In this document: positions 1 through 64,000 of the stretch, piece by piece
Layout: every line of letters starts with the position of its first letter
Position numbering within the stretch: position 1 is the first letter of the stretch
Source of the DNA: Candidatus Oxydemutatoraceae bacterium
Lineage (GTDB): Bacteria > Pseudomonadota > Gammaproteobacteria > Poriferisulfidales > Oxydemutatoraceae
Reading direction: 5' to 3'
DNA: 64,000 nt
NCBI GenBank assembly: GCA_965219575.1
Contig: OZ244779.1
Location: 1,612,769 to 1,676,768, forward strand
Made by a program: the position numbers and the translations under genes
Notes under the pieces: generated by a model
Database searches by the model: none
What the model saw: the letters and a program-made list of their open reading frames with translations, nothing else
Told to the model about the DNA's origin: nothing

Positions 1-3000
1 CTACATAAGTCGGCATGAGTTGGAATCCGCTCTCGCCGGCTTTCAATATCAAGCGATAGTTGTATATGAGTGGATTAAACGACGGAATAAGCTCTAAAAC
101 TTCGCTCGAGAATACCAAATCGGTCAAGCCGATATACTGACCGGGTAGCAACTTGCCACACACCGGCAACCGCGACGAGGTATCCGACGCGACACGGCAG
201 GTCGGCGCACTACCGATGAAAAGTGTATCGGTGGCAGTCGTGTATTTGAGCCTCGGGTATTGCATATTATTGCCCAAATCCCATATCGCAACATTCCAGT
301 TGGTGTAAATCTCGGTTGTCGTAGATTGAAGTTCAACGGTGGTTTGGCTGCTACCGTCGCGCCCATCGACAACACCGCTGGTATTTATATCCCAGTAGCT
401 GTCGTTGACCGCAACCGGCACATTGGCGGCATTGAAGACCAAACCGCCGCTTCGAGCCGAGCGATTCGCACCGATGGCATAACTGTTGTCAATCCGCACG
501 CCGGTGCCTAGCGAACCGACCAACCCCCCGCCTTCGCTCGCATCGATCATAGCGGTTGCATAACTGTTTGAGATCGTCGCATTCTCAACCGCACCGACCA
601 AGCCGCCGCCGGACGCGGAACGCGCAGATACCGTACCGGACGCACGACTCTTGCCGATCGCGCCGCGCAACAATCTACCGATCAAGCCACCGCCGATGGC
701 ATCGACTTCAACCGAAACACTGCTATCGCTGTTGACGATAGTGCCGCGGTAAACGCCGATTAAACCGCCACCGTTGTTGTCGGCACGCACCGTGCCGGTC
801 GCACGGCTATTGATGATCTCACTGTTGTTTCGGTCTTCGCCGACCAAGATGCCGACATCGTTGTTGCCGATAACCTCGGCAGCCGACACATTAATTCCTC
901 TGATCATAGCAGCGGATATCGCACCGAACAAACCGACATCGTCGCTATTACGGCGACGGATCATCAAACCCGATATCGTATGGCCGTCGGCAATAAACTG
1001 AGCGGTGAACGGGTGCTCGGCATCGCCGATCGGCTGCCAACCCTTGCCGTCGGTCCACAGTGGCATCGTACGCTGCGCATCCACATAGCTGTCGACCGAG
1101 TTGAAGTCCAGATCTCTGACCAGTTCGTAGCCGAAGCAACCGCTGTCGGGGCAACCGCCGTCTATCATAATCGTGGTGGTCGTCCCTAATCGATAACTGA
1201 AACCACGACCGTCTAAACCGTGTCGTATCGTGTCCAACTGCTCCAAAAACGCAATTTCTATCAACCCGTCGCCGTCGGCATCGAGGGTCAAGTCGCGGTC
1301 GGCATCGACAACGATGTTGTTGTCGGCATCCACGGTGAGGATACCTCGATAGCTTGCGAAAGGCAGACGTTCTACGACGATGCGATATTCAAATCGGTAG
1401 CGTTGCCCGCCGCGCACCGTCACCGTGATTTCGGTGGCAGTGTCGCCCAGCACCACCTCCGCAATACCGCTGTCTTGCAGTGTTATCGGCTGCACACCGT
1501 TATCGGCAGCGATTACAATATCCACGACGGCACCCGGCAACGGATCGCTCACCATCGTATTCAAGCGCACTCGCTCGGTGTCGGAATACACGATCAACCG
1601 ATAGTCGCTTCTATCTCTTATAAAGTTCGGCGACAACCGCGAACCGTCCAATGCCGAAAGCTGTATGTCTATGTTGTCTTGATAATCGGTCGACCTGAAA
1701 TTGATCGTGTAGCTACGGGTCGTGGCATCGGTTGCCGAGCGCACCGCCAAGCGCAGCGCATCGATATCGGTTCTGTTTAGGTCGATCTCGGCACTGCGGG
1801 TGTTGTCGGCAATAATTTGTTCGCTGTCTCCGGCTATCAGGGTGACGGTGTCGGCGCGATAATAGGCGGTCGGTGTGGTGTGGAATACGGTGATTGCCCC
1901 GTTAGTTATCAAGTTGTACGACTCCACTTCGGGGCTGAACTCCGGCACCAACCGTACACCGGCGGGTAATTCCAGTGCAATCAAGCCACGGCGGTTTTGA
2001 TACGGCACCAATGCGCCACAATACGGTTGGTCCGAGCGATCCCTAAGCAGACGGTCGCGACAGACAAGCGCACGGTCGGTTTCCGACAACCTTGCCGAAA
2101 CCAGCGTATCGCAACTTCGTAGCTGTGCCACAGTCGGCTGTGTGCACAAACCGGCACTCCCGTCTTGATACAGTGCCGCAGGGTATTGGTCGGCATTGCC
2201 GAAATGCCACAGTGCCGAATCCCAACGATAGTAGACGGTATCGGTGCTATTATTCTGTGCCACACCGGATTGCAATTCTACCGTCGTTTCGCTCGTACCA
2301 CCGGCAGCGGTCGCTCCGGGTGCGGCGGTATCCCGATCCCAATAACTGTCTAAAACTTGAGAGTCACCCAGTGCATTGCGAAATAAAGGTCCGCCGGTTG
2401 CATAGCTATTAGTGACGATACCCTCGTTTGTATCGATTAGACCGGCAATAACTCCGGTGTTGTCGGAAATGATAGGCTGCGCATAACTATTTTCTATATT
2501 GCCGGAAATATTATTTTCTAACGACAAACCCGCCGCAGCAGTATTCGAACCTCTACTTCTAATAGCGATCGTTGCAAAACTACCGAGAATAGCACCGTCG
2601 TTGGTATGTACCAAACCTGCAGAAGCATCTTGATTATCTATCGTGCCACCCACTGCACCGCTGTTGATAATGCGACCGAGATTTTGATAAACCAAAGCAC
2701 CGACACTCCCGTTCTGCAAAAGAATATCGGCATTTTCAACGCGACTATTGAAAATAGTGCCGTAGTTATATACCGCCAAAGCGGCGATTACACCGGTTTC
2801 TCTACTACTACGGATAGAGACATCTTTGAGGTGGATATCTTCCAGCCTTGCATTCTCATCCAAATAAGCAAACATGGCTATCTCGTCAAAAGCGGGGTCG
2901 TGTAGGGTCAGGTTGGATATCGCATAGCCGTTGCCTTTGAAATGCGCATCGAAGCGCGCGTTATCGCGACCGATGGGGTGCCAATCTATCCCTGCCAAGT

Positions 3001-24631: not shown

Positions 24632-24634
24632 GTA

Positions 24635-24644
24635 CCCCCCCTTT
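24635..24644 (-). promoter_or_regulatory. Putative ribosome-binding site of gene B (AAAGGGGGGG)
   Basis: Purine tract directly upstream of tacATG. Confidence 0.65.
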
Positions 24645-24657
24645 AAGCATAAAACTA

Positions 24658-24674
24658 ATAGTAATACTATAACA
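24658..24674 (-). promoter_or_regulatory. Putative extended -10 promoter (TGtTATAGT) overlapped by the palindrome ATAGTA-N-TACTAT
   Basis: Minus strand ggtgttatagtattactat gives TGn plus a 5/6 match to TATAAT about 35 bp upstream of the ATG; no -35 at canonical spacing. Confidence 0.45.
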
Positions 24675-24762
24675 CCTTCTAACCCGTAACGGATGGATGT
24701 TTGTGCCGATGTTTACCCACTAATATCGGGGCTGTTGAAAAGGTGCGGGCATTGCAAAAATC

Positions 24763-24848
24763 CAACCGCCTGCGCCGTGAATATTTACAAATCACCGTAG
24801 GGGCGGACATCATAATTGCCGATTGACCTACCGGCTCAATCGGTGGTT
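24763..24848. repeat. Intergenic structured repeat, copy 1
   Basis: Shares caaccgcYtgcgccgtgaat, ccgtaggggc, an identical 22-mer gccgattgacctaccggctcaa (24818-24839) and ggtggtt with copy 2. Contains the inverted repeat ccgattga-N9-tcaatcgg. Confidence 0.9.
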
Positions 24849-24850
24849 AT

Positions 24851-24885
24851 CGCATTTTGTAATGTATGCGTTACTTACTTGTCAA
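24851..24885 (-). promoter_or_regulatory. Possible distal promoter: perfect TTGACA (24885-24880), weak -10, palindrome CGCAT-N10-ATGCG
   Basis: Minus strand ttgacaagtaagtaacgcatacattacaaaatgcg. The best -10 at 18-bp spacing is only TACAAA. Confidence 0.3.
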
Positions 24886-24919
24886 GGGTCTGCACAACGT
24901 CACGCCACTTGCCCAACTG

Positions 24920-25008: not shown

Positions 25009-25062
25009 CTATTGGAGAGGACCCTCCAAAAAGACTTTGGCACGAATGCGTATCGCACCTCT
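25009..25062 (-). other. Non-repeat C-terminal tail RGAIRIRAKVFLEGPLQ*
   Basis: Read directly from the sequence; basic and hydrophobic, unlike the acidic Thr-rich stalk before it. Confidence 0.85.
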
Positions 25063-43000: not shown

Positions 43001-46000
43001 GAAACGGTGACCGCACATCGATACGGTTCTCTACGCCAATAACTATTCGTGGGTGCTCTACTCGGCGTGTCACGGTTTAACAAGCCGGCAACAGTAACAT
43101 TCACCGGGTTGCCGTTATAAGTTGCCGTTATATTACCGGGACAAGATGCAAAGCTTTGCGTTTGTGATGCACCGAGATCGCTAACCGAAGCGTTTGCCCC
43201 GAACAGCGTCGGCACATAGGCCCTACCGTTGGCATAGCTATTGGCAACGATGGACCTGCCGTCGATGTGCCTACCGACCAAACCGCCGAGATACGGCGTG
43301 GCACATGAAACCGCTGCCGGTATTTCCACATCACTATTAGAATGTACATAACTATTTCTGATTTCACCGATGCCGTCGGCTCTCTCGGCAGCGGATAATT
43401 GAGACCCGACCAAACCGCCGGCGATACAAGTCCCCGATACTTCGCCGGCCGAATAATAGCTGTTGTGAATTTTCCCGCCACTGCGATTCCTGCCGACCAA
43501 GCCACCTACGGTCACATTCCCGTTGTTCGCAATAGTACCGTCGGAATCCTGCACACTCACATTAATTCGTGCACGACTGTTGACTATATAACCGGCGTTG
43601 ACACCGACCAAGCCACCTGCCGAACCGAGATCGGTGCGGATGACACGCACCGATGAATTTCTAGTCACAGTACCGAACACATCACTATTGCGGATTACAC
43701 CGCCGCGCCGCAACAGCCCGGTGATAGCACCGACATTCTTGAACCCTGCCAAACCTTTGATGGCGGGAAAGTCCAGGACTAAGTTTTCAACCTTGCCGCT
43801 TGCACCGATCTCGGAAAACAAACCGACATTCGCTCTCGTGCCGGCACTGCTACGGCTTATCGACAGGCGAGCAATAGAATAACCGTTGCCGTTGAATATT
43901 GCATCGAACACGCCGCCTATAGGTTGCCAACCGTCGTCGGTGGAGACGAATTCATTTTCGCTTACCGTCCAGCGACTCATGTTCGCATCGGCATTGCGAT
44001 AGCTACCGGCAACGGTGAAGTTGAGATTCCTCGTCAACTCGTAGCCGATACAACCGGTAATCGGGCAACCGCGAGTAATCAAATCGGCATCGGCACTTGC
44101 CCTAGAGCCGCTACCGTCGAGTTGATGGCGCACCGCATCCAGATCTTCTAAATGCCTAATCTCTATCAAACCGTCGCCGTCGTCATCTATGTCGTCGGCG
44201 TTGATAATCGAATCGCCGTCAATATCGGCATTATCCATAGCGACCGACGACCCGACGGTGACAATATTGGACACGATCGGCTCGCTCGTATAGCCCTGAC
44301 CATCCGAATACAAACCGATGAAACGATATTGATACCCGGCATCCACCGTATCGCCCGCCGATAAATTCACATTCCTCCATATATCGCCCGGAAAACGCCT
44401 CTGGAATTGCCTACTTAGATTGCTCACGGTACCGTCGATATCGTTAAGATTCTCGGTGACCGTGATTCTTCGGTTCGTGTTCACCGACAGTACCGGATTT
44501 CCGGTCACCCGACCGTTATTCACTTTGTTGATACGCACCGCGATCTTTCTGCTTAAGTAGACTTGCCGGACGCGGTTATTAGGGGTAATCGATAACGACA
44601 ATTCAAACTCAAAATCGCCGTGATCTACATCCGCGGGTAGCAGGTCGACTTGCGGTGCCAACACTAGATTCAAGCTATCTGCATCGGCAATGTTCACCGG
44701 CGTGCCGCTGATCTGCGACCAGCTTAGATCCGAACTGCCGGCGTAGTCTCCGCCGACCGTGAACATGTCGCCCTCGGCGATGTCGATTGCGGCAATATTA
44801 TCCAGTCTTAGATTATCGCGGACTATATCAAAATAATATCTCGACACCCGATTGCCGGCGCTCGCTACCAGCGTGATTTCTTGTGTATTAGAATTATCCA
44901 AAATGAGTGTATCACCGCTGCCGACAAACGGACATAACGCATCGTCGCAATACAACATGGTCTCCAAACCGGCAACGGGCGGTGTGGTGGTAAATGTAAT
45001 CGGCAACGGTAATCGGGTTGCGTCTACATAGAGCCGGTATCTGTTACTATTTCTACTATATCTAAAACCGCCGGTGATACCGTTTATTCGGGCTATTGCG
45101 ACATTCGCCACTTCTACATTACGCACCAACGAACTATCCAATACCTGCATCGCAATGCTACCGTCGGTAGCCTTCAGTGTCGGGTACTGCGCATCAGTGC
45201 CGAAATCCCAATCGTCGCTACTCCAATTCGCATAAATACCCATCGTTGGTGTCGTCCCTTGTAGCACTGCGGTGGTTTGACCACCGAATGCGGTGGTTTC
45301 ACCGACACCCGTAGAAGCCGATTGTTTATTGTTAAGGATATTATCCCAATAGCTGTTTGTAGCGGAGGCAGTGCCACGCACCCGCCCGATCAAACCCAAG
45401 ACACCCCCCGACTGGCGCGCTGCCGCATAGCTGTCGACGATATCGGCTTGCTCCATAAAGCCGACCAAACCACCGAAACCTTGAACAAATCCTGCAACAT
45501 TGAAAACTTCATTAATGCATCTTACATTCAATATCTTATTCATGTCGACCTGTGCATAGCTGTTCTCGATGGTGCTGATATTCTCTGCGCTATCGCGGTT
45601 TGCCGAGATATGCTCGCCGACCAAGCCACCGAGCCGACAATGCCCGCTTATCGCACCGGTCGCATAGCTGTTTTTAATCTTCGCACCACCCTCGTTCCTG
45701 CCGACCAAGCCACCTACGATGTCCCCGAAAGTACCGGTGCGAGGAGAAAACGAATAAATATAGACTTGTGCAAAGCTGTGACTAATCTCACCCCCGCTAT
45801 TGACACCGACCAGACCACCGAAGCGACTTTGCTTAAGCAAATCCTGACGGTAGCCGGAACCCACCAATGCGTTGATCTCTTTTACACCGACATCGTGTAT
45901 GCGGCCACGGTTCTCGCCCGCCAAGCCCCCTTGTTTCTCCGCTCTCCTCCTATTAAAATCACGCCCGATTACATCGTAAATACCGACATTGCTCAAGCGT

Positions 46001-49000
46001 AGTGCCTTAACTTCGGCATTCCGACCTAAGGTATGGAACAAGCCGAGTGCGTCTTTAGTTCTAGTGCCGCGCAAACTCAAGTTGCGAATTTGATATCCGC
46101 TACCGTCGAACACGGCAGCGAACGGGGTGTCTGCGTCTCCTATCGGATCCCAGTTATCCGACCACTCGGTATTCACCACACCCGAGCGGTAGCTTGCGGC
46201 ATCTCGGAAGTCCAAGTCTCGCGTCAACTCGTAGCCGAAGCAACCGGCGGTCGGAGTGGTCGGACACCCGTCAACGATAGGCAATAATCCATCGTCGGGT
46301 AGCGCATAGATGTAGGTACTGCCGTCCAGACTATGGCGTATCGCATACAAGTCGTCCACTGTCGTGATTTCTATCAAACCGTCGCCGTCGGCATCGGCTA
46401 ATATTCTATCGTCATCAAAGCTCGAATAATCTATCTCTAAAATATATTCAATGGTCGTGCCGGCACTTCCAACCGATACGATAATCGCGTCGTCAAAACC
46501 GGGATCGAGTACGATCGAGACACTCGCACCGTCGGCAACACCGAATTCATTCCCGCCATAAGCGATAGTAATCACCGCATCGTCGCTCGCAGCATGCGGT
46601 ATCAGACGCAACGAATCGGTCACCCCGATGTATGCATCGATACGATAGCGCGGTCTAGAGGTTGCAAATTGCGGCGACAACCGCACGCTTCCCAGAACTT
46701 GTAGGTCACTCAATCCGTAGTTCCGTATACTACCGCAAGTCGGCTGACCGCCACCACCGCACGCCGGGTTGTCGCCATCGTCGCCTCGTCCATAGCGCAG
46801 TTGTGGGTAGTGTTCGGAGGTGCCGAAATCCCATAGGTTTGTATCCCAATTCGCATAGATACCGGTCGCAGTGGTCGGTGTTAGCAGTGCGACCGTCGTT
46901 TGACCGATGCCGCTGCCGTTATCCGCCACGCCGGCGGTCTCTATGTTCCAGTAGCTATTACTCACGCCACCTAAATTATCACCGACCAAACCACCGGACT
47001 CGCGTACATCGCTCACTCGTCCGATGGCATAACTATTGACAATGCTTCGGGTACCGACATTGCCGTTGACCCCGACCAAACCACCGACCCGACCTTGTGC
47101 GGAAACATCACCGCTCGCATAGGTGTCCGACACCATACCGATATTCAAACCTGCCAAGCCGCCGACGCTGTTGTTGCCCGATACCTCGCCCAACGCATAG
47201 CTTGTCAAAACCGCCGCACCTACATCGTTGCGACCGACCAAACCGCCGACCGCGCCGATGCCCGATACCGCACCGCTCGCATAGCTGTTGACGATACGCC
47301 CGTCACCGTCGGAACCGATACTATTAGTCCCGACCAAACCGCCGACATTGCTCTCGCCCGATACGCTACCGATCGCATAACCGTTATAAACCTTGTCGGT
47401 GTTATAACCGACCAAACCACCGACATTATAACTTTCGCTATCGTCGCTACCCGATCCTACAACCGCAACTTCGGCAAAACTACGGTCAACCAAACCGTCG
47501 TTCTCACCGACCAAACCGCCGACAAAAGCCCTGCCCGTGACTTCGCCTATCGCACCGCTCGCAACGATAGAACCTCCCAAGTTGCGACCGACCACGCCAC
47601 CGATCAACTCGCTATATCCGTTTTCGGAATTATAACCGACGACTTCGATCGGATCGGCAAGAACATCCGATAAATGCCCAGTGTTATAACCGATAACACC
47701 GCCGACCTCACTTTCTCCGCCGACCTCACCGCGCACCGACACATGGTCGACGCGACCATCGCTATTGCCGGCCAATCCACCGACACCATCCCGGCCTCTG
47801 ACCGACACACCCGATAAAACGAGGTTGCGGATCTCGGCATCGCGATGCAGATGCGCAAACAACCCGACATTATCCGAGTTCGGTGTAGCGATGCGCAAAC
47901 CGGAAATCGTGTAGCCCGATGATCGATTACCTTCGAATATGCCGGCAAAACATCCGTTCTCGGGATTATCGCAATCGAGCGTTTTGAGCGTTCCGATAGG
48001 TTCCCAATCGGCAGCCGAAAGCTCTATACTCGCCGCCAATTCGTAGCCGATACAGCCGGTTGTAGGCGCACACCCGACGGTGATTCTCCGATCGGCAGCC
48101 GACGACCTATAGCCGCTACCGTCCGGTTGATAGCGCACCGCATCCAGTTCGGTTCGGTTGTGTATTTCTATCAAACCGTCGTCGTCCACATCCACATCGC
48201 CTATGCGCAGATACGGATGGCGCGACGCGGTGAAGGTATAGACTAGATCGCCGTTTCCGAGATCGATTCCGGTACTGCCCGAAGCGGCAACCGGAATACG
48301 CGACGATGCGCTGCCACTTCGGACGATTTCGGCAACACCGCCGTCTACCGATAATCCATACGCCGCTCCCACATAAGTCGGCGTGAGTTGGAATCCGGTC
48401 TCGTCGGCTTTCAATACCAAGCTGTAGTTGTATATCTGCGGATTAAACGACGGAATAAGCTCTAAAACTTCGCTCGAGAATACCAAATCGGTCAAACCGA
48501 TATACTGACCGCGTAGCAACTCGCCGCATACCGGCAACCGCGACGAGGTATCCGACGCGACACGGCAGGTCGGCGCACGACCGAGCGCATCGGTAGCAGT
48601 CGTGTATTTGAGCCTCGGGTATTGCATATTATTGCCCAAATCCCATATCTCGGCATTCCAGTTCGTGTAAATCGCGGTTGTCGTAGATTGAAGTTCAACG
48701 GTGGTTTGGCTGCTACCGTCGCGCCCATCGACAACACCGCTGGTATTTATATCCCAGTAGCTGTCGTTGACCGCAACCGGCACATTGGCGGCATTGAAGA
48801 CCAAACCGCTACTCCGAGCCGAGCGATTCGCACCGATGGCATAACTGTTGTCAATCCGCACGCCGGTGCCTAGCGAACCGACCAACCCCCCGCCTTCGCT
48901 CGCATCGATCATAGCGGTTGCATAACTGTTTGAGATCGTCGCGTTCTCAACCGCACCGACCAAGCCGCCGCCGGACGCGGAACGCGCAGATACCGTACCG

Positions 49001-52000
49001 GACGCACGGCTCTTGCCGATCGCACCGCGCAATAATCTACCGATTAAGCCACCGCCGCTCGCATCGACTTCAACCGAAACACTGCTATCGCTGTTGACGA
49101 TAGTGCCGCGATAAACGCCGATTAAACCGCCACCGTTGTTGTCGGCACGCACCGTACCGGTCGCACGGCTATTGATGATCTCACTGTTGTTTCGGTCTTC
49201 GCCGACCAAGATGCCGACATCGTTGTTACCGATAACCTCGGCAGCCGACACATTAACACCTCTAATCGTCGCAGCGGAAATCGCACCGAACAAACCGACA
49301 TCGTCGGTATTATGGCGACGGATCATCAAACCCGATATCGTATGGCCGTCGGCAATAAACTGTGCGGTGAACGGGGCATCGGCATCGCCGATAGGCTGCC
49401 AACCCTTGCCGCCAGTCCACAGTGGCATCGTACGCTGCGCATCCACATAGCTGTCGACCGAGTTGAAGTCCAGATCTCTGACCAGTTCGTAGCCGAAGCA
49501 ACCGCTGTCGGGGCAACCGCCGTCTATCTCGATCGTCGTCGCCCCTAATTGATAACTGAAACCACGACCGTCCAAACCGTATCGTATCGTGTCCAACTGC
49601 TCCAAAAACGCAATTTCTATCAAACCGTCGCCGTCGGCATCGAGGGTCAAGTCGCGGTCGTCATCGACAACGATGTTGTTGTCGGCATCCACAGTCAGAA
49701 TACCACGATAGCTTGCGAAAGGCAGACGTTCTACGACGATGCGATATTCAAATCGGTAGCGTTGCCCGCCGCGCACCATCACCGTGATTTCGGTGGCACC
49801 GTCGTTCAGCACCACCTCCGCAATACCGCTGTCTTGCAGTGTTATCGGCTGCACACCGTTATCGGCAGCGATTACAATATCCACGACGGCACCCGGCAAC
49901 GGATCGCTCGTCGTCGTATTCAAGCGCACTCGCTCGGTGTCGGAATACACGATCAACCGATAGTCGCTTCTATCTCTTATAAAGTTCGGCGACAACCGCG
50001 AACCGTCCAATGCCGAAAGCTGTATGTCTATGTTGTCTTGATAATCGGTCGACCTGAAATTGATCGTGTAGCTACGGGTCGTGGCATCGGTAGCCGAGCG
50101 CACCGCCAAGCGCAGCGCATCGGTATCGGTTCTGTTTAGGTCGATCTCGGCACTGCGGGTGTTGTCGGCAATCATTTGTTCGCTGTCTCCGGCTATCAGG
50201 GTGACGGTGTCGGCACGGTAATAGGCGGTCGGTGTGGTGTGGAATACGGTGATTGCCCCGTTAGTTATCAAGTTGTACGACTCCACTTCGGGGCTGAACT
50301 CCGGCACCAACCGTACACCGGCGGGTAATTCCAGTGCAATCAAGCCACGGCGGTTTTGATACGGCACCAAGGTGCCGCAATACGGTGGGTCTGTTCTGTC
50401 CCTAAGCAAACGGTCGCGACAAATAACCGCACGGTCGGCTCCCGACAATGTTTCTGAAACCAGCGTATCACAGCTTTGCAGTTGTGCCGCAGTCGGCTGT
50501 GTACACAAACCGGCACCGTGATACAGCACCGTCGGGTATTGGTCGGCATTGCCGAAATGCCATCGCTCGGTGTCCCATCCGGTATAAACATTATCGGTAC
50601 TATTCTCTTCTCTATCGGCGAGTTGCAGTGCTATCGTCGTTCTAGCGGCACCGGCGGCACCGGTGGCTCCGGGTGCGGCGGTATCCCGATCCCAGTAACT
50701 GTTTTCGACTTCGGGACTACCCGAAGCGGCGCGCACCAAAGGCCCGCCGGTTGCATAGCTATTATTAACGGCACCCCCGTTTGTATCGATTAGACCGGCA
50801 CCGGTGCTATCGGAAATAATACGCTGCGCATAACTATTATCTACATTGCCGTTGCCGTTATTTGTTAACAATAAACCCGCTGCAATATTTTCGGAACCTC
50901 TACTTCTAATAGGGATCGTTGCAAAACTACCGAGAATAGCACCGTTATTGGTATGTACCAAACCTGCGGCAACACTTCGATTATCTATCGTGCCGCCGAC
51001 CGCACCGCTATTGATAATGCGACCGAAGTTTTGATAAACCAAAGTACTGCCACCCAACTCGTTTCGCAAAAGGATAGTGGCATTTTCGATGCGACTATTG
51101 AAGATCGTGCCGTAGTTGCGTACTGCCAAAGCAGCGATTGCACTTGTCGCTCTACGACTACGGATAGAGGCATCTTTGAGGTGTATATCCTCCAGCCTCG
51201 CATTCGCACCCAAATAAGCAAACATAGCGACATCGATAAGAGTTGGGTTGCTTATAGTCAGGTTGGATATCGCATAGCCGTTGCCTTTGAAATGCGCATT
51301 GAAGCGCGCATCATTGCGACCGATGGGCTGCCAATTTATCCCTGCCAAGTCTATATCGGCTGTCAACTCATAACCGCGACAGCCGACACGGCAATAAATC
51401 CTAGTACTATTACCGGTGCTACCTGCCCTATAAAAATTACCGTCCAAACTATGACGCATCGCATCCAACTGTTCGGGGGTGGCAACATCTATCAAACCGT
51501 CGTTGTCGCCGTCTATTGCGGCAAAGTCTATCCGCTCGTTCAGACGCGAGATGTTGAAGCGGTAACGATACGATTTGCGATCCTCGCCCTCTTCTACGAC
51601 CACATCCAATAGCGTATCACCGCCGGTGTCCAATGCAATCGGTGGTGTCGCAACGCCGCTTTTTACTCTGAGCACTTCGGCAGCGGTGGTTGTTTTATAG
51701 ACCACAATATCGGCATTCGGAGCAAACGCCTCGGCAACAAAGCGCAGACTTTGTTGGTCGGCAGCGACCACAATCTCGTAATCGTTGAATGTCGCAAAGT
51801 CAAAAGGTCGGCTGAGACCGGCATTGCCGAGTAGCTCAAAACGCGCCATCAAGCTCCCTTGATACGGGAGTATCTTGCCGCACAACGGGTTGTCGTGTCG
51901 TGCGCGTTGACATTCATCGGAATTATACTTGATCACCGGAGATTGACCGGCACCACCGAAATCCCAATCGTCGGCATCCCAGTTCGCAAAAATACCGGTC

Positions 52001-55000
52001 ATCGTCGTTGCCCGCAACTCGGCACCGCTTCTCGCTCGACTTGCCGGCACATCAACCCTCGCAATGTCGCGATCAAAATAGCTGTTCGTTATACGCGCTA
52101 GGCCATTACTCAAGTTTCCTTGCGCCACGCCCGCTCTAGTCATCAGCATAGAGGCATAGCTATTGCCGATGTTCAAACTTCGTGTAGAGTCCACTCCTAA
52201 CATCGCGGTATCTATAAATTCATTTTCGATCGCGGTTTCGATTCTTCCGATCGCACGGCTGTTTCCGAGTGAATCGGAAGAGAAACCTGCACTAGCAGTC
52301 ACCAGTCCATTTGCACTAACGATAACATTATCTCGTCTGTTATTTCCCAGTAATCTCAGCGTGCCGATAAAGTAGCTGTTACTTACCGAATACCCCACTG
52401 CTCGATAGGTAAGACCGGATATATTTGCCGATCCTGCGCCTCTTATATCGCCGATCACATAACTATTGCGGATTGTGCCGCGGTTGTCTCTTTGGTTGAC
52501 GAATACGCCAACTAGTCCCGCTAGCTCTACGCTATGTGGGTTGGCAGCATTATCGGCACTGATATCCACATTGACTAAACCCAAGCCGTCTATATCGGTG
52601 CCGAAGGCTAGATGGAAAAATGCATCATTTCTGTCTGTATTGCCGGTCACTTTCAGATTGGATATCTCATAGCCGTTGCCTTTGAATACGGCATTAGATA
52701 AGTTAGGCGAATCCCAGCCTTGCCCGGTCCAGCGGCGCATAACACCGTTTCGAGCCGGGTCTCGGTAGCTGTTCGGGTCGTTGAAATCCAAGTCCCGCAT
52801 CAACTCGTAGCCACGGCATACACCATTCGGACAGCCTAGGGTATTGAGTTCACCTCCTATTCTATAACCTATCTCTCTTTGGAAATTAGAATGTACCATT
52901 GCCACATCTTCCAGATAATGAAGGTCTACCAAACCATCGTTGTCGGCATCTATCGATGTCTCGGGTCGGTAATCCAAATAGACCGTATAACGCACCGTCT
53001 CGGTGCCGTGAACCACGATGACGACTTCGGTGGTGCCGCCGGCGGTCAGCGCAATCTCGCCACTGGGATTACCGCCGGCAATTTCGGTGTTCTCGAGTGT
53101 TCGGACACCGCCGATATAAACGCTATAAGTGGCACCTGCTTCGCGTGTCGTGGCAACCAGTTGCACGCGCGGCGTATCGTTTAGCACCGTGGTGTAATAA
53201 GCACCATCGATATCCGATAATGCGTCGTCGAAGGGTACGGTGAGTTGTGCGTAGCGAGCGGTGAGTGCGCTCAAGCCGTAGCGTGTTTTGGAGGCAATCA
53301 GGGTGTCGCACAGCGGAAGTCGCGACGGGGTGTCCTCGGCACTACGACACGCCGGGCTATCCAGCACATCGGTCGCTGCGGTATATTTGAGAAGCGGGTA
53401 TTGCATCGCAGTGCCGAAATCCCAGTCGGCAGGACTCCAACGGTAATAAATCTGACCCGAGTTTCTACCGGCTTCGGTCGGTGCGCGCAGCTGTCGCATC
53501 GTTCTGCCTTGGAATACTCGCGCGGGAGCGGGTAAATCTTGTGTAACAGTATCTGAATTGTAATAATTCGCTCTGCTAATATTAATCCGTACTAGATCCG
53601 ATATAAAACCGGCATAAGCGAGGCTCGACGGCCCGATTGAATAATTGGCATTTATCGATAAGTTATTGTTCTCAATGAATAACGCACCAAAAAATCCGCC
53701 GTTGGCATTGCTTCTTAAGTTAGTACTAAATGGCCCACCACTCACATCGACCCATGCATAGTTGTTGCCGATGTTAGATGTACCTCCCGCCCTACCGACA
53801 AACCCTCCGATGTTGTCCGCCGAACCAATTCCTGTAACCGAACCGACCGCAAAACTGTTCAATATCGTGCAACCGTCGCATCTACCGAGCATGCCACCGG
53901 CATTTATTCCGGTTGCCGATAACCGAATACCGCTACGGCTATTGACGATAACGCCGGTGCCGGCAGCAACCCCGGCGATGCCGCCGACATCACCGACACC
54001 GGACACCGCTCCGGTCGCATAACTGTTGACAATTTTACCGCGAACGGTGCCGGCGATACCACCGAGCTGCGAGCCGGCTTCCACCATCAGATTCGGCAAA
54101 CCCAGATTGCGTACGACACCGCTACTGTCGATCACGCCGAATAAGCCTTGATTATTTTGACTGCTTCGGTTGATCTGTAGACGCGCGATTGCGTAGCCGT
54201 TGCCGTCGAAGGTGCCGGTGAACGGGGTTGTTGTATCACCTATCGGCAGCCAGCCGGTATCGGTCGCATCGGTGAAGTCCACGACCCAATCGTTGTTTAT
54301 TTCACCCGAGAGGTAGCTGTTCGGGTCGTTGAAATCAAGGTCGCGCATCAATTCGTATCGACCCGCTAGAGTGGAGGTGCTGGCAGCGATGGCATGAAAG
54401 TGATCCAAATAATAGATTTCGGTGAACCCGTTTCTGTTGCGATCCGCAAGCATAGGATCGTTTTGGTGGCGTATATAAAGCGGATAGTATGCCGGCGGTT
54501 TGCCTTCTATTTCCAGTATAATGTGGTTGATGCCGTCGTCTAAAAAGATCGGGTTGCTCGTGCCACCACCGATAATCGTCTGAAAGGGATCGCGTTTGAC
54601 GAAATTAAGGTGAATGTTGATCTTTGTATTATCGTCTCTCGCAGTCGCTACGATGCGGATCGGGTTGCGGTAGACTTCACCGAAATAGTCGGCGGAACCC
54701 TCGGCAAAAGACGGATTCAATATTCCCGATGCCAAACGCAAATCTTGCAAGCCGTTGCGGATTTGGGGGGCAATCAAATCACCGCACACCGGCAATCGCG
54801 ACACCGCATTGCGGTCGAGGCGGCACGCCGGGTTGCCGAATATATCCGGTTCGGCGGTGTACTTGAGTATCGGATACTCATCGGTGTCACCGAAATCCCA
54901 ATCGTCGGCACGCCAATTCATGTAGATACCGGTCGGACCGGTCGGCATTTGCAACTGCACCGTCGTTCGACTGGTGCCGCCGGCACTTGTATTTAGCCCA

Positions 55001-58000
55001 CCGGTTTCGCTGTTCCAGTAGCTCGCATCGGTATTGGTTCCGACCCTGTTATTGGCGGCAACTAGACCACCGAGGGTGCCGGAACCCGTTACACCCGATA
55101 GCGTATAGCTATTACGAGTCCCTATCTCAATCGATTGAGTTCCCGAAATAGAACCGACTAAACCACCGCCGTTATTTACATCGGCATGAACCGATCCCGT
55201 CGCATAACCATTGACGACCAAACCGTTTACGAGAATATCCCCTATCAATCCGCCGACATTGTCGTCGGCTCGGATATTCACGCCGGCATAACTATTGTAA
55301 ATTTCCGTACTAAAAGCACCTGTGCCTCTTAAGCTACGACCGACAAGCCCTCCTGCATAACGAATGTTGCCGACAATACTGCCGTAAGCGCGGCTGTTAA
55401 TAATCATACCACTGGAGGCAAACCCGACTAATCCGCCATAGTTGTTCGCTCTACTACCGGGGAGTGCTTCTATATGAATCGCTGCATAGCTATTGAGGAT
55501 TTCGGCATTGTTCGACGGATTGGTTAAGCCGACTAATCCGCCGACATTGTTGCCCGTTGCGGTTATCTCGCCGATCGCATAACTACCGATAATCTCTCCT
55601 TCTAAAATACCTGCCACTGCGCCGGTCGTGCCACCGGTATCTATTTTTACACTCAACAGACCGAGATCGCGTACGACACCGCTATTTCCGATTACACCGA
55701 ATAAACCTTGATTATTTCCGCTATCTCGGTTGATTTGTAGATTGGATATCGTATAGCCGTTGCCGTCGAAGGTGCCGGAGAATCGGTTAGTATTATTGCC
55801 TATAGGTTGCCAACCGAAATCGTCGTCGTCGTTAAAATCGTCCACCGTCCATTCGCGATTTATACGACCCAAGCGGTAGCTGGTCGGGTCGTCAAAATCC
55901 AGATTACGCATCAACTTATAATGACCGCTCGGGTTATTGCGTATTCGATCGACGCCCTCTAAATCGTGTATTTCGGTAGATTCGTTATAGCGTATATAAA
56001 GCGGATAGCGAACCGTCGAGTTGCCTTTTATTTCCAGTACGATACGGTTGACACCCTCGGCTAAGGTGATCCGACTACTGGTCGTACCGCTGATAACGGT
56101 CTGGTCGGGACGGCTTTTACCTTTGACAGTGCCCAAATAGATATTGATCATTGCATTATCTTCTTTTGCAGTCGCTACGATACGAATAGGGTTCGGGTTG
56201 CTACGTCCCGGGTCGGTGGCAACGACACGACCGGAATAATTGCCGTTCAGACTTCTATGGGTGTCGCCGAAGGGCGGATATAATTCGTCGCCGTCGGCTA
56301 ATGTTAAATCTTCGAGACCGTTACGGATTTGAGGTGCGATCACATCGCCGCAGTCGGGCAAACCGTTGCCGTCGCAAGTCCGCATCCCGTCGGCAACGGG
56401 ATTGGGGGCATATTTGAGTATCGGGTATTGCATGTCATTGCCGAAATGCCAGTTGTCCTCGCTCCAGTTGTGATAAATCTGGGTTGAATTCGTTCCCTTT
56501 GCAATCGCCGATTGCAGTTCCCGGGTACTCCTGCCGCTTACGCCCACCCTCGAATCGCCGAGACGAGACTGTCCTTCGGCAGTATCGCTGTTCCAATAAT
56601 TCGGTGCACTTACCGAAGGTCTATTAAAACCGGATAATCTATCGTAAAAACTTCCGTTGGTTCGTCCGATGGAATAATTGGCGGTTAAGGTTGCAGTACT
56701 GTTGAGACCGAGCACTCCGACAAATCCACCGTTAGCGTATCCCGAAGGGTTAAGTGCTTGCCTTATGTTGCTTTGTGCATAGTTGTTTGCAATGTTAAAT
56801 GTGTGTTGCGCGCTACCGACTAAGCCGCCGGTCGGTAGGCTAAGACTCCCGGTATTGACGATCGCACCGATTGCAAAACTATTTTGTATGTTACAGCCGT
56901 TGCAGTTGCCGACCAAGCCGCCCAGATTAGATTGATTTGTCGACACCGCAACATCGCTATAGCTGTTGACGACGGTGCCGAGACTATCGCCGACCAAACC
57001 ACCGATATCATTGAAATACCCGTTCACCGTTCCGATAACATAGCTGTTGGCAATCAAACCCGAGTCGGTATTGGTACCGACCAAACCACCGATATTGTTG
57101 GCATAGCCGGCAATCTCGCCGGTCGCATAGTTGCCGATGGCAACACCGGCGTTGTAGCCGATCAAAGCTCCGACATGACTATAGATTGCACCCGAAGTAT
57201 CGATGCGTCCTACCTTCACATCCAGCAAGCCGAGGTCGCGTATCACGCCGTCTTTGCCAACCGTGCCGAACAGCCCTTGGCGGTCGGTTGTGCGGTTGAT
57301 TTGCAAACCGGATATCGTATAGCCGTTACCGTTAAATTGTCCGGTAAATGTTGTATTGCGCTCGCCTATAGGAAGCCAGCCGGTATCGCTCGCATCGTTA
57401 AAGTCTTCCACCGTCCATTCACGGTTTATCCGATTTCCGGCATAGCTGTCCGGGTCGTTGAAGTTCAGGTGTCGAGTCAATTCGTAGTTGCCCGCCGGTC
57501 GGGTCGCTATAAACCGAAGTTTGTCCAGATTATCGATCTCGGCAAAGCCGTTGCCGTCGCGATCCGACGGCGTGTCATCCTCTTGAAAACTTATAAAGAG
57601 CGAATACCGTAGCGGCGGTGTTGCGACGATTTCCAGAACGATGCGGTTGATATCGTCTTGATCCAATACGATCGGCATGCCGGTCATACCACTGACGACA
57701 CTCTGGTCGGGCGTGCCGTCGACGGCACCGAGATAGATATTGATAACGGCATCGTCTTGCATTGCGGTCGGGATCAAGGCGATGGTATCCATGCCGACCG
57801 TACCGAGATAACGGCTATTGCTTGCGGTGAAAGCCGGTACCAATTCGCCCGATGCCAATTCCAAGCTCTTCAAACCGTTGCGAATTTGCGGTGCTATCAG
57901 ATCGCCGCAGTTCGGCAGACCGCTGCCGTCGCAAACCGTAACGGCAGCTATAGATGCGTATTTTAATATCGGGTATTGCTCGGTCGTGCCGAAATCCCAG

Positions 58001-61000
58001 TCGGCAGGACTCCAGCTCGCATAGATGCCGGCGTCGGCAGTTTGATTGGTCGGTGCTTGCAGTTGTGTTGTCGTTCGACTGCTACCGGAAGCACTTGTGT
58101 TCAGTCCACTGGTCTGCCCATCCCAGTAGCTGTTGCCAGCGGTGCCCGATCCGGTCCCTATCAAACCCCCGATTGCAGACCCGCCGGCGGATACGCGACC
58201 GGTTGCATAGCTATTTCTTATCGTGTTCGCACCCGACGCATTACCGACCAAACCGCCGACAGCGGACGCATCGCCGGCAGCAATCGCACCCGTCGCATAG
58301 CTGTTTCTAATGACGGTAGTGGTGAATTTTCGACCGACCAAGCCGCCTATATTTTGATTGGTCGCGGCATCTATCACATCGATACGACCGGTCGCATAGC
58401 TATTTCTAATTTCACTATTTGCGTGTGAACCGACCAAACCACCGATATTCCACTCACCCGAAACATTACCGCTCGCATGACTGTTGACGATATCGGCACG
58501 ACCGGTGCCGACTAATCCTCCGACCCCTTGTCGACCTACAACATTAACGGCTGCATCGCTGTTGGCAATCGAACCCCTATCATGAGTACCGACCAAACCG
58601 CCGACAACATTGTTGGTTGCGGAGATGTCACCGCTTGCATAGCTACCGATGATGGTACCTTGATTGCCACCGACCAGTGCACCGATAATATCGGAACCTT
58701 CTATTTTTACACCGACCAAATCGAGATGGCGCACCACAGCACCGGGACCGGTAGCACCGAACAAGCCTCGATAAATAGCATTGTCTCGGTTGATTTGTAG
58801 ATTGGCTATCGTATAGCCGTTGCCGTCGAAGCGACCGCTGTATCGGTCGGTAATATTACCTATGGACTCCCAACCGAGAGCGTCGTCATCGTCAAAATCA
58901 TCCACCGTCCAATCGCCGTTGACCGTGCCCGAGAGATAACTGTCGGCATCGTTGAAGTCCAGATCGCGCATCAATTCGTAGTTGCCCGCTAAAGTGGAAG
59001 TACTAGTACCGACGGCATGAAGGTGATCCAGATAATAGAGCTCGACGAACCCGTTGCCGTCTCGGTCCGCCAACACACGATCACCTATATAGTTTATATA
59101 GAGCGGGTATTGAACGCGCGTCGTGCCGCTGGTGATCTCTAGGACGATGCGGTTGACACCTTCGTCTCGATCCAATACGATCGGCATGCCGGTCATACCA
59201 CTGACGATACTTTGGTCGGGCGTGCCGTCGACGCTGCCGAGATAGATATTGATAACGGCACCGTCGTGCATTGCGGTCGGGATCAAGGCGATGGTATCGA
59301 GGGTTGCTTCGCCTCGATAGTTGCTACTGCCGGCACTGAAAGCCGGTATCAGTGTCCCCGATGCCAATTCCAGATTCCTCAAGCCGTTGCGAATTTGCGG
59401 TGATATTAGATCGCCGCAGTTCGGCAAGCCGTTGCCGTCGCAAACCGTAATGGTATCGGTGGATGCGTATTTTAATATCGGATATTGCTCGGCAGTGCCG
59501 AAATCCCAATCGGCACTACTCCAGTTGTAATAAACATCGGTCGGTGTAGTTCCCGGCGTAATCGGCAATTGCATCTGTTCGGTGTTAAAACCGAGACCTC
59601 GCTCGTCGTTAAAACTTGTACCACTGGCTTGTATATCCCAGTAACTGTTTTGGACACGACCATCGGTGTTATTAAACCTGTTTCCCAAGAAACCACCTAT
59701 ATTTACTCCGCTATCCGGTACACTACCGATAGAATAACTATCGGCAACTAATCCGCTTGCTACATTTTGCCACAGAGTACCGATGAAACCACCGACCGAT
59801 TCTTGGCCGATAACCGAACCGGTCGCATAGCTATTTCTAATGACGGTATTACCTACTTTATCGCCTACAAAACCACCTACCGACCTCAAGGTACGACCCA
59901 TGACATTACCGGTCGCATAGCTATTTCTGATTTCTCCGTCCCTATGTACGCCGACGAAACCACCGCAAAAGCCATCTGCAGAAACGCTGCCGGTCGCATA
60001 ACTATTGATGATCAAATTGGGGATTCCATCGAAAAAACCGGAAGCACCGGCCAATCCCCCGACATTAACATTTCCGGTGACATCGACGGCAGCGTAGCTG
60101 TTGATAATCCAACCCGATCTCAAATGTCCGCCGACCAAACCGCCGACAATATCGGTTCCGGTGACTTTGCCGGTTGCATAACTGCCGATGATGGTGCCTC
60201 GGTTTGCACTGGCCAGTGCACCGGTATACGCCCTACCCTCTATAGAGACACCGATCAAACCGAGGTCGCGTATGCTACCTTCGATACTACCGAACAGACT
60301 TTGATCATTAACATTTCTATTGATTTGCAAATTGGATATTACAAAGCCGTTGCCGTTGAACTCGCCTCTGAATCGGGCGGCATCGGTGCCTATGGGTTGC
60401 CAGCCGGTATCGGCAGGGTCGTCGAAATCGTCCACCGTCCATGCGGCTTTATTTGTAGCATCCTCGTAGCTGGCATCGTCCAGAAAATCCAGATCTCCGG
60501 TCAATATATAATTGGCACTCGGATTGTTGCGTATGTTATCGAGGTCTTCCAAAGTATCGATTACGATCGCCGGATTGCCGTCGTCACCCAATAGCGCAGG
60601 GCGATAGCGAAGCGATAAGTTGTAGCGGTCGACACCGCCGCTTCGGCCGTCGCCACCGGGCGTGATCACTTCTATCGCAACATAAGTCGCAGTGCTTTGA
60701 CTCAGTGTTATTTCTCGGCTAACAATACCGCCGACACCGCCGGCAACGGCGGTCATCGGCTCGCTACGACCGGTCTCGTTGTACGCGTCGTCAAAGTAGA
60801 TAAAGGTGATTTGTGCATTCGGGTCGGCAGCAACGGCAACCAGACTCGCGCTCGGGGTGTCGCGTTCGACGACACCGATGTAGCTCCGATAGCGGGTGTC
60901 AAGCGGAGGAACCAGTCTGCTTCGGCGTTCCGACACACGCAGTGCGCTCAGTGCGCGTCGCGGTATCACCGCACCGCAATTCGGCAAACCGTCGCCGTCG

Positions 61001-64000: not shown

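Follow-up and report, generated by a model that had tools for sequence, protein, structure and literature searches.

The window, the whole stretch of 64,000 nucleotides that was analysed, holds parts of two very large genes on the minus strand, which we call B and A. The first open reading frame (2..24631) starts with ATG and runs for 8,210 codons until it leaves through the left edge. The second (25009..63999) comprises 12,996 codons and leaves through the right edge. The window thus shows the N-terminal 8,210 codons of B (1..24631, minus strand; Pfam Glug and Cadherin-like) and the C-terminal 12,996 codons of A (25009..64000, minus strand), as an earlier reading of the sequence had it. The junction at 24632-25008 also stands as first read, with TAG at 25011-25009 ending A and ATG at 24631 beginning B.

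We placed both frames in the whole genome, 2.37 Mb on one contig (completeness 98.9%, contamination 0.22%), of an uncultured gammaproteobacterium, a marine organism with a small genome that reportedly lives in symbiosis with a sponge. They belong to a set of three collinear genes, all on the minus strand and in the order C-A-B, that spans 137 kb; A is the middle gene and B the last. Whole gene B occupies G000:C1:1597329-1637399 and ends at window position -15,439; whole gene A occupies G000:C1:1637777-1685839, and its start codon, at window position 73,071, opens a protein beginning MKPPSS. C lies upstream of A, 2,054 bp apart. The genes are 40-48 kb in size, with open frames of 13,383 (B), 16,069 (A) and 15,435 (C) codons and predicted proteins of ~13,356, ~16,020 and ~15,423 aa (1.4-1.7 MDa). 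Their DNA is 80-97% identical and collinear over nearly the whole length. Proteins of more than 10,000 residues are uncommon; this genome encodes five, three of them consecutive. Housekeeping genes flank both ends of the array, and the copy number in this assembly stops at three. They were also all that inspection of the two flanks found: no secretion or anchoring genes adjoin the array, and no ABC, MFP or TpsB genes were found beside it. A fourth gene of the same architecture is located elsewhere in the genome.

The original prediction, made from the window, had described two genes in tandem, where three are found; its suggestion that the array might continue was borne out by C. Its repeat unit of one gene plus spacer agrees with the whole-genome layout, and its placement of the A start near 73,000 was close to the mark. 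The end of B was expected about 23 kb left of the window and lies 15.4 kb away, because the B stalk is shorter. The estimate of about 16,000 codons per gene is right for A but not for B. The collinearity of B and A at an offset of 48,368-48,425 bp was recovered by blastn at the same offsets. The part of A at 48371..64000 (minus strand) aligns with B 3-15575 at ~90% DNA identity in two blocks: B 4161-15575 with A 52562-64000 (90.2% over 11,458 columns, offsets 48,401-48,425) and B 3-3914 with A 48371-52264 (90.5%, offsets 48,368-48,350). Weaker matches, on diagonals displaced by ~1.5 or 3.1 kb, are internal modules pairing with each other.

Each protein carries about 20 modules, the unit being one Ig-like sandwich and one GLUG beta-helix. 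Within the window the module region of A is at 39847..64000 (minus strand; residues 3,073-11,124), where self-comparison gives units of ~510-575 aa, and that of B, by module count, is at 1..24055 (minus strand; residues 220-8,236). An AlphaFold model of one A module (59539..61125, minus strand; residues 4,032-4,560) has a pLDDT of 81.2 and a pTM of 0.74, with the sandwich at model residues 59-175 and the helix rungs at 255-497. Foldseek with this model returned five matches at E<=0.001, all of them IgA1-protease entries (7uvl, 7uvk, 6xja, 6xjb) or 3n6z. The E-value was 4.3e-6 for 7uvl and 9.8e-5 for 3n6z, the latter with a TM-score to the target of 0.57; normalised to the query the TM-scores are low, 0.28-0.38, since none of the targets extends over the whole model. 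Judged by the predicted structure, the module helix is a right-handed beta-helix like the solved GLUG domains, in line with the beta-helix first read in the modules.

Profile searches point the same way. Glug (PF07581) scored above its cut-off of 20.5 bits in 10 of 12 pieces of A, B and C, with 33.0-200.6 bits in nine pieces upstream of the stalk and no match in two all-stalk end pieces. PF05342, the model of the M26 N-terminal region, matched solely via its GLUG part, and the NCBIfam ZmpA model matched weakly at positions 934-1104 (41.6 bits vs. a cut-off of 3000). A phmmer search of the module against PDB sequences gave 0 matches. Across A, B and C, Pfam detected no catalytic family at E<=0.001, neither Pfam nor NCBIfam detected an RTX, barrel or TPS family, and the motifs HEXXH and GGxGxD both occur 0 times in each protein. 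Apart from one marginal window in A, hydrophobic 19-residue stretches are confined to the signal peptide.

The stalk consists of 13 to 34 detected Cadherin-like domains, depending on the copy. In A (25087..38811, minus strand) a custom HMM recognises 34 such beta-sandwich domains with a period of ~110 aa, together with three gaps of ~250 aa. PF12733 (cut-off 24.2 bits) scores 742.7 bits on the A tail (27 stretches, over the final 4,069 aa), 286.1 bits on the B tail (10 stretches) and 517.9 bits on the C tail (15 stretches). By self-comparison the A stalk contains an internal duplication of ~2,090 aa that is absent from B. About 19 modules and about 40 stalk domains had been forecast; the former holds for A, with 19-20 modules, and the latter came out as the 34 recognised domains plus gaps.

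B begins with a 25-residue signal peptide ending ..SAQ (24557..24631, minus strand), read from the sequence, within a conserved N-terminus that recurs in A, C and three orthologues. The peptide is of the Sec type on A, B and C. A signal-peptide-like N-terminus is seen in six of seven aligned sequences, the seventh having entered the alignment without its start. The purine-rich AAAGGGGGG precedes the B start at ATG 24631. We considered a special ligand-binding head at the N-terminus and dropped it, as in the alignment the first beta-helix opens, with its cap motif, directly after an Ig-like domain.

The B-A spacer (24632..25008, 377 bp, no strand assigned) is made up of two ~160-bp copies of a dispersed intergenic repeat, identified by repeat search, genomic match counts and contig depth. 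It has 120-220 genomic matches per position, and its depth reaches 78,336 in run X1 vs. 165-1,186 in the other 29 bins. The A-C spacer contains an ORF of 184 aa with four paralogues elsewhere in the genome. Rfam gave 0 matches on both spacers and the upstream flank, hence no known riboswitch or leader. A promoter scan of the B-A spacer found no site on the coding strand and two weak sites on the non-coding strand, vs. 1.2 expected by chance.

A ends in a 14-residue tag, IRIRAKVFLEGPLQ (25012..25053, minus strand; stop at 25009-25011), which sits outside the last Cadherin-like domain behind a variable linker of 6-11 residues. The 14 terminal residues are identical in A, B and C, and their codons differ synonymously. 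Every one of the 19 ORFs in the genome with 2,500 codons or more terminates in the tag or a close variant. In all, 43 ORFs end in it, the five proteins of more than 10,000 residues and 38 others, summing to 152,125 codons or 19.3% of the genome. NCBIfam models had no match in the last 200 residues. We rejected the possibility that the tag merely results from translation into an intergenic repeat: its codons vary synonymously, as do the stop codons, and the DNA beyond them is not alike, so conservation acts on the peptide itself. Surface display, as originally proposed, is a reasonable inference from the signal peptide, the fibrous domains and the shared C-terminal tag.

The frames had been thought to be under selection, and they are. 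Among the copies dN/dS is 0.41-0.44 at dS of 0.22-0.33. In A the coding frame has one stop, the terminal one, vs. 311-908 in the other five frames, so the frame is open far beyond chance; under simulated random substitution of 10% it gained a mean of 144 stops (minimum 117, 20 trials). Neighbouring housekeeping genes have a dN/dS four to six times lower than this 0.4, and constraint is therefore weak. The copies are also mosaics of one another. We counted 2,738 pattern switches at 7,801 informative sites vs. 4,955 after shuffling (lowest of 500 shuffles, 4,833), which indicates gene conversion. Part of the mosaic signal, at alignment columns 6000-7500, stems from C modules that probably lack orthology to the A and B modules.

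Three same-genus genomes (G001, G003 and G004) each have one best orthologue (62-64% identity across the N-terminal 351 aa), with frames of 16,152, 11,639 and 12,827 codons, none of them tandem. In an N-terminal alignment A, B and C are mutually 87-95% identical, vs. only 62-65% to the orthologues. The G003 orthologue shares its downstream neighbours SnoaL-xseA-guaB-guaA with this genome. Among named sequences, the best match to guaB is from a Chromatiales MAG (80%). Judging from these orthologues, the family is conserved across the genus. Their single state makes the triplication look lineage-specific and recent. The housekeeping dS between this genome and G003 (0.48-0.79) exceeds that among the copies, and the triplication seems to postdate divergence from the sister species; concerted evolution could, however, make old duplicates look young. 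A search of genome contigs with the N-terminal 351 aa confirmed one of 324 candidate stretches, a 28-residue match in a Dehalococcoidia MAG. Another assembly contains A-like (99.3%) and C-like (98.1%) N-termini, the longest contig listed for each being 166,682 bases. Assemblies with less polishing show the giant genes broken by frameshifts into pieces of 1,700-2,200 aa, so that they are easily missed. The homologue search for longer proteins covered 1,051-3,000 residues, a range below the size of full-length relatives. The family has no name, and no publication on it was found in the literature searched.

We consider it likely that one conserved, very large gene has truly been triplicated in tandem, in this lineage alone, and that its products are exported, non-enzymatic fibre proteins with a role in coat formation or attachment. 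The family probably forms the outer coat of the cell or its attachment fibres. The chain would cross the inner membrane via Sec, and machinery recognising the tag would then pass it over, or hold it at, the outer membrane. The Cadherin-like stalk, as a flexible chain, would hold the rigid beta-helix modules away from the cell, at distances reaching a few hundred nanometres, where the fibre would act as a coat or as an attachment fibre toward the matrix of the host or toward other cells. Purifying selection keeps the three copies open, and segments pass between them by gene conversion and unequal crossing-over. Being open and exchanging segments, they would furnish the cell with three related but different fibres, their module sets and stalk lengths drifting apart. 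About 19% of a reduced symbiont genome is given to tagged proteins, which suggests that such fibres are central to life with the host.

The proteins might be exported and yet not be adhesins, serving as a protective or space-filling coat (against phagocytosis, grazers or phages) or as a shed matrix, with the copies providing dosage and not diversity. The N-terminus, being simply the first Ig-like and beta-helix module, offers no recognisable ligand-binding head; a fifth of the genome encodes tagged proteins that are predicted to be exported, which would suit a bulk structural layer; and the proteins are acidic (pI 4.5-4.6) with little Lys (~1%). However, a modular rod of Ig-like domains and beta-helices is the usual build of an adhesin, and the copies diverge and exchange segments when they might have been kept identical, so diversification fits better than dosage. 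The present evidence favours neither coat nor adhesin. We regard the dosage-driven coat or matrix as a whole as unlikely.

The array itself could be an artefact, two or three strain haplotypes of one giant gene laid in tandem by the assembler. Copies that are ~90% identical, spacers made of high-copy repeats prone to mis-joins, and relatives with a single orthologue at this kind of locus are what such an error would draw on. In four sequencing runs the Logan contigs that match 21000-29000 are each only a few hundred bases long and break in the spacer. No contig bridges either spacer, so the tandem order is that of this assembly alone. Against an artefact, the copies are unequal in length, with differences of up to 2,700 codons, and do not have the same modules and stalks, and the spacers are unlike, 377 bp vs. 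2,054 bp, the longer one with its own ORF. The genome is a single contig, near complete and with little contamination. Record 3 of run X1 passes from the last codons of A into the spacer with zero mismatches and record 25 of run X7 from the start of B into the spacer, while both A-like and C-like N-termini recur in the other assembly. The block-wise changes of nearest pair are also unexpected for haplotypes of one locus, unless the strains recombine. We regard an assembly error as very improbable.

Silent or decaying duplicates, i.e., one working gene with its relics, are also very improbable. The elevated dN/dS relative to housekeeping genes and the lack of a promoter-like site before B would agree with decay, but three frames have stayed open over 13,000-16,000 codons at the dS given above, when as little as 2% random change would add a mean of 28 stops to the A frame, and the signal peptide and the exact tag are kept in three of three copies with only synonymous differences in the latter.

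Export by a known Gram-negative giant-adhesin route, type I (RTX) or type V (autotransporter or two-partner), is very improbable: megadalton size, an Ig-like repeat stalk, beta-helix segments and the one TolC-like gene in the genome (matched at both OEP repeats) are in its favour, but the Sec-type signal peptide, the absence of GGxGxD and of RTX, barrel and TPS families from Pfam and NCBIfam matches, and an array neighbourhood lacking ABC, MFP and TpsB genes speak against it. A genome search for ShlB (PF03865) gave 0 matches, but the control matched in 0 of 14 control genomes, so this result carries no weight.

Returning to the triplicated fibre genes, a bolder extension is tentative and, in our estimation, possible at best. 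Together with the fourth gene of the same architecture, the copies may constitute a recombining cassette set in which gene conversion and unequal crossing-over reshuffle modules and stalk length into an ever-changing megadalton coat against host phagocytes or phages, exported and anchored by an undescribed tag-reading pathway. A candidate for the latter is an odd type II/type IV-pilus-like operon, which adjoins another giant-gene array in five of five genomes of the genus. A secretin/ATPase operon at G000 1,222-1,231 kb is a prime candidate for the tag-reading machinery. If this is true, the tag-reading pathway would serve about a fifth of the coding capacity of the genome. The triplication also offers a natural experiment on the duplication of 40-kb repeat genes, on the upkeep of their open frames and on the exchange of segments between them.

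The modules share their GLUG (PF07581) beta-helix with the M26 IgA1 proteases (ZmpA family; 6xja, 7uvl, 7uvk) and with BACOVA_03286 of Bacteroides ovatus (3n6z). Unlike the M26 proteases, the array proteins have neither the M26 catalytic domain nor HEXXH. They also differ from the M26/GLUG proteins in their Gram-negative host, in having about 20 modules per chain and not one, and in pairing each helix with an Ig-like sandwich.

Giant RTX adhesins that Gram-negative bacteria secrete by the type I route, e.g., LapA, SiiE and the 1.5-MDa ice-binding MpIBP, are megadalton, acidic proteins in which an Ig-like chain holds a distal region off the cell. They lack a Sec signal peptide, possess a T1SS signal as well as RTX repeats at the C-terminus, and are encoded next to ABC and MFP genes. 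The array proteins resemble them in size, acidity and the long Ig-like chain, and would likewise act as a surface fibre. They differ in their signal peptide, 14-residue tag and housekeeping neighbours and in having no RTX motif. A Sec signal, a beta-helix/Ig rod and a short terminal tag in one chain fit no described Gram-negative giant-adhesin pathway.

West-Roberts et al. (bioRxiv 10.1101/2023.11.21.568195) define 'large' proteins as at least 10,000 aa and 'giant' ones as at least 30,000 aa; by these thresholds A, B and C (13,356-16,020 aa) are large but not giant. There, such ORFs are reported from small genomes of host- or partner-dependent bacteria, with proposed roles in attachment, and the giants are often near type II secretion-like genes and carry many transmembrane regions and SecA-like domains. 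'Gammaproteobacteria' and 'sponge' both occur 0 times in its text. Like the giants described there, another giant-gene array of this genome lies near type II secretion-like genes. A, B and C, unlike them, have no transmembrane regions or SecA-like domains and are half that size or less. The tag, finally, differs from the LPXTG/sortase, PEP-CTERM/exosortase and GlyGly-CTERM/rhombosortase signals in having no transmembrane helix or basic tail and in being itself the end of the protein; like them, it is a short, family-independent C-terminal peptide common to many proteins with a signal peptide.

The window holds parts of two giant genes on the minus strand. Gene B occupies 2..24631 (8,210 codons from an ATG start, open at the left edge) and gene A occupies 25009..63999 (12,996 codons, open at the right edge). 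In the genome as a whole (2,369,097 bases in one contig), where the window covers 1612769-1676768, a stop-to-stop scan found three adjacent giant frames, all on the minus strand: B at 1597329-1637480 (13,383 codons), A at 1637777-1685986 (16,069 codons) and a third gene, C, at 1688041-1734348 (15,435 codons). Counted from a conserved M-K just ahead of the putative signal peptide, the proteins are ~13,356 (B), ~16,020 (A) and ~15,423 aa (C). A BLASTN of the A part against the B part resulted in two long collinear blocks (90.2% and 90.5% identity) at offsets of 48,350 to 48,425 bp, in agreement with the 48,368-48,425 bp of the original prediction. Weaker matches lie on diagonals displaced by multiples of ~1.5 kb and come from the internal modules. 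The prediction had also placed the start of A near window position 73,000, and the conserved M-K start is at 73,071. Gene B is shorter than predicted, ending at window position -15,439 rather than ~23 kb left of the window, and the ~16,000 aa expected of each protein hold for A only. An array of two genes that might continue had been proposed; it does continue, with C upstream of A, and numbers three genes. The original observation is confirmed and its interpretation is correct in outline, with two numbers (the gene count and the length of B) wrong.

The three genes share 80-97% DNA identity and are collinear along almost their whole length. The module region of C (each module an Ig-like sandwich plus a GLUG beta-helix) has ~1,200 extra residues, and the stalk of A (a chain of Cadherin-like domains) contains an internal duplication of ~2,090 residues, with 82-85% amino-acid identity in the longest matches, that B lacks. 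The B-A spacer measures 377 bp (stop to start) and the A-C spacer 2,054 bp. The array has three copies and no more, with other genes at both ends: hisG, a murA-type gene, mlaC, an RNase E/G gene and cysS upstream of C, and a DUF4143 ATPase, a SnoaL-like gene, xseA, guaB, guaA and alaS downstream of B. Within the A-C spacer is a 184 aa ORF (window 73,445-73,999, minus strand; 227-781 of the extracted stretch L013) with heptad-like repeats, a C-terminal hydrophobic segment and a GAAGAGG motif a few bases upstream. Four full-length paralogues of this ORF (60-70% identity) are found elsewhere in the genome, one of them ~5 kb upstream of another giant gene. A 327-codon ORF with a TTG start lies antisense to gene B (18707-19690, plus strand) and most likely arises because the opposite strand is repetitive and stop-poor.

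Using the first 351 residues of A as a query, matches were found in 12 of 31 related genomes, in five of 10 genera and in all four further members of the genus. Three genus members with complete or nearly complete genomes have one best orthologue each (62-64% identity), with open frames of 11,639 (G003), 16,152 (G001) and 12,827 codons (G004). Further paralogues of 10,138 to 18,986 codons are at distant positions in these genomes, and in none of the three does the best orthologue have a tandem partner. The G003 orthologue is followed by SnoaL, xseA, guaB and guaA, the same genes as downstream of B, and nothing longer than 700 codons lies upstream of it. The N-termini of A, B and C are 87-95% identical to one another and 62-65% identical to the orthologues, and dS among the three copies is lower than dS at the species level. 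The simplest reading of these comparisons is that the triplication would have followed the split from the G003 lineage. Alternatively, the copies may be older duplicates kept alike by concerted evolution.

The source genome also has a fourth gene built in this way (15,560 codons, N-terminus 53% identical), a gene of 12,747 codons and five ~5,800-codon genes in a tandem array that is present in G001, G003 and G004 as well. Of the 19 ORFs with 2,500 codons or more, which make up 17.9% of the genome, 18 contain the module. In other public assemblies, three gene calls of 1,699-2,167 aa (P0152, P0153 and P0154) match the N-termini of A and C at 83-99% identity, after which they run into out-of-frame sequence. 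In less polished assemblies, frameshifts split the family and much reduce its apparent size.

The intact frames had been attributed to selection, and the substitution pattern agrees. Values of dN, dS and dN/dS are 0.092, 0.224 and 0.41 for A-B, 0.146, 0.335 and 0.44 for A-C, and 0.133, 0.316 and 0.42 for B-C. The frame of A has zero stops before its end (311-908 in its other five frames), while random substitution of A at 2%, 5% and 10% (20 trials per rate) gave means of 28, 71 and 144 in-frame stops, with a minimum of 117 at 10%. Four neighbouring housekeeping genes compared with G003 have dS of 0.48-0.79 and dN/dS of 0.07-0.10; the giant genes are constrained, four to six times less than these core genes. 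The copies are also mosaic. The nearest pair is A-C over the first ~2,500 residues and again near 10,500, A-B over ~2,700-6,500, and B-C over ~6,600-7,500 and 8,500-9,500. At 7,801 informative sites, 2,738 pattern switches were counted versus a mean of 4,955 (minimum 4,833) in 500 shuffles. In alignment columns 6000-7500, C is strongly diverged (dS above 1), and its modules there are probably not orthologous to those of A and B. The mosaic signal in these columns is module replacement or misalignment, not conversion; the switches between low-dS blocks remain.

Part of the B-A junction is present in 12 sequencing runs from six studies, and six of the 12 runs contain at least half of the sampled words; the best-matching run may come from the source sample. 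In four runs, each from a different study, contigs cover 29-30 of the 30 bins of window 21000-29000 as pieces of a few hundred bases, none of which crosses the B-A spacer. This spacer consists of two copies of a ~160 bp unit with 120-220 matches in the genome, and depth in run X1 is 78,336 at the spacer versus 165-1,186 in the other 29 bins; the contigs break there because the spacer is a high-copy repeat unit. That the tandem array is a mis-assembly is nevertheless very improbable. The copies differ in length, their spacers differ and the copies are mosaics, and contig pieces from both gene ends reach the spacer: one from X1 (record 3, 24957-25579) runs from the last codons of A into it with zero mismatches, and one from X7 (record 25, 24534-24823) from the first codons of B. 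In a separate assembly, fragments resembling A (99.3% over 1,793 aa) and C (98.1% over 1,614 aa) both occur, each out of frame afterwards; the longest contig listed is 166,682 bases, a figure given for each fragment separately that does not imply a single contig.

Two other joints were seen in these data. A 527-base contig of X6, which belongs to another study, connects 25692 with 27706 through 36 other letters; the 2,013 bases left out correspond to about six of A's stalk domains. Either the strain has a shorter stalk or the contig has collapsed through repeats. X1, X4 and X6 each have a contig with 30 other letters in place of 189 spacer bases (window 24769-24959). The number of spacer repeat units may differ between populations, the shorter side of this joint being only 22 letters.

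The proteins are 1.41-1.70 MDa, with a pI of 4.5-4.6 and ~1% Lys. By inspection, their N-termini are putative Sec-type signal peptides (basic at the start, then a hydrophobic core, with ..AQ ahead of the mature end), kept in the paralogues and in three orthologues. Only one other hydrophobic 19-residue window was found, a marginal one in A. In all three genes, Pfam recognizes Glug, the GLUG-bearing part of Peptidase_M26_N and Cadherin-like, with no further family above threshold; a PKD-like match is sub-threshold in A and marginal in B. NCBIfam gives one weak ZmpA match, over the GLUG region of ZmpA, and none in the last 200 residues. No HEXXH or GGxGxD motif is found in A, B or C. Self-comparison and a custom HMM divide A from ~200 to ~11,100 into units of ~510-575 residues, with 19 unit starts plus an N-terminal unit. 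Ten units (residues 1,586-6,588) are well conserved, nine complete and one internally shortened, and divergence is greater in the later ones. The stalk of A (residues 11,470-16,044) has 34 recognized Cadherin-like domains with a period of ~110 residues and three gaps of ~250 residues. At E ≤ 1e-5 the domain count is 31 in A, 17 in C and 13 in B.

The module was modeled with AlphaFold2 (pLDDT 81.2, pTM 0.74); the input alignment had 32 near-full-length modules, taken from A, B, C and another two genes of the genome. In the model, a beta-sandwich (59-175) is followed by a short helical cap and then by short strands, regularly arranged, between 255 and 497. Foldseek against the PDB at E ≤ 0.001 resulted in five matches, all to IgA1-protease entries (7uvl, 7uvk, 6xja, 6xjb) or to 3n6z, a Bacteroides ovatus protein (TM to target 0.57). 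The next matches (E 0.005-0.02) are pectate-lyase-like beta-helices. A sequence search of the PDB gave no match to the module. The predicted fold thus supports the beta-helix that had been proposed, and adds an Ig-like sandwich paired with every helix. This sandwich is distantly related to the stalk domains. An Ig domain generally spans ~4 nm and a helix rung ~0.48 nm; from such generic dimensions we estimate that a full chain could extend over a few hundred nanometres. In a full HMMER search of 1.84 billion representatives, the module matched 40,853 proteins at E ≤ 0.001 (5,665 at E ≤ 1e-30), many of them multi-module proteins of 2,000-7,500 residues. Very few are named, one being an "M26 family metallopeptidase / GLUG motif-containing protein" of a Clostridia species. 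As a building block the module is common and poorly studied, and the term is rare in the literature searched.

A shared 14-residue C-terminal tag or a close variant ends all 19 ORFs of at least 2,500 codons, with the exact ..KVFLEGPLQ in 10 and variants in nine. A pattern scan, which omits one of the 19 owing to a one-residue variant, found 43 ORFs ending in the tag or a variant; they total 152,125 codons (19.3% of the genome), slightly high as stop-to-stop lengths are used. The last domain of A, B, C and two further proteins closes with a Y-T-x-T-x-x-R strand, after which come a variable linker of 6-11 residues and then the tag. Four of these five tags are identical and the remaining one has a single-residue difference, over last domains of 29-68% identity. 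A distinct ..FPEGLL.. variant ends the five ~5,800-codon genes and one 3,305-codon gene, with one ..LPEGLL... Among 31 ORFs with the exact KVFLEGPLQ end, the Leu, Val, Pro, Gly, Glu and Gln codons, the stop codon and the downstream DNA all vary, thus selection acts on the peptide and the tag is not a DNA repeat.

A, B and C combine a signal peptide-like start, fibrous non-enzymatic domains, a terminal tag, purifying selection and genus-wide conservation. We infer that such proteins would be exported through Sec, with the tag recognized by an outer-membrane or periplasmic machine. Attachment would be C-terminal, the Cadherin-like chain forming a stalk and the beta-helix modules lying distal, and the fibre might bind to, or shield the cell from, what it meets at the host interface. 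For export of the tagged giants, a candidate machine is a compact T2SS/type IV pilus-like operon outside the window (1222452-1231058; L037 3553-12159), between the 15,560-codon gene and the five-gene array. It encodes a divergent secretin, a T2SSE ATPase, a T2SSF platform protein and two prepilin-type proteins, and has four more ORFs that match no Pfam family. In five of five genomes of the genus, the secretin is 7-10 kb from a giant-gene array. It is also found (32-35% identity) in two other related genomes (G007 and G011) without a match to the GLUG query, and the operon does not adjoin the C-A-B array; thus the export link is a lead only.

The guaB near the array shares 80% identity with that of a Chromatiales MAG and 64-66% with those of Ectothiorhodospira and Thioalkalivibrio, so the source is an uncultured gammaproteobacterium. 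Candidatus Porisulfidus, its putative genus, is listed among known sponge symbionts (PMC12988363) and is an outgroup to SUP05 in a figure legend (PMC9123188). We found no published account of the A/B/C gene family in the literature searched; others may exist beyond it. A comparison is possible with West-Roberts et al. (bioRxiv 10.1101/2023.11.21.568195), who call proteins "large" from 10,000 aa and "giant" from 30,000 aa upwards and describe their genes mostly from Omnitrophota, other PVC phyla, Actinobacteriota, Myxococcota and Margulisbacteria, with type II secretion-like genes near giant genes. That text has zero occurrences of "sponge" or "Gammaproteobacteria". Giant modular surface-fibre genes are a known kind; what is undescribed is the combination of export signals together with the very large size and a probably recent, recombining tandem triplication.
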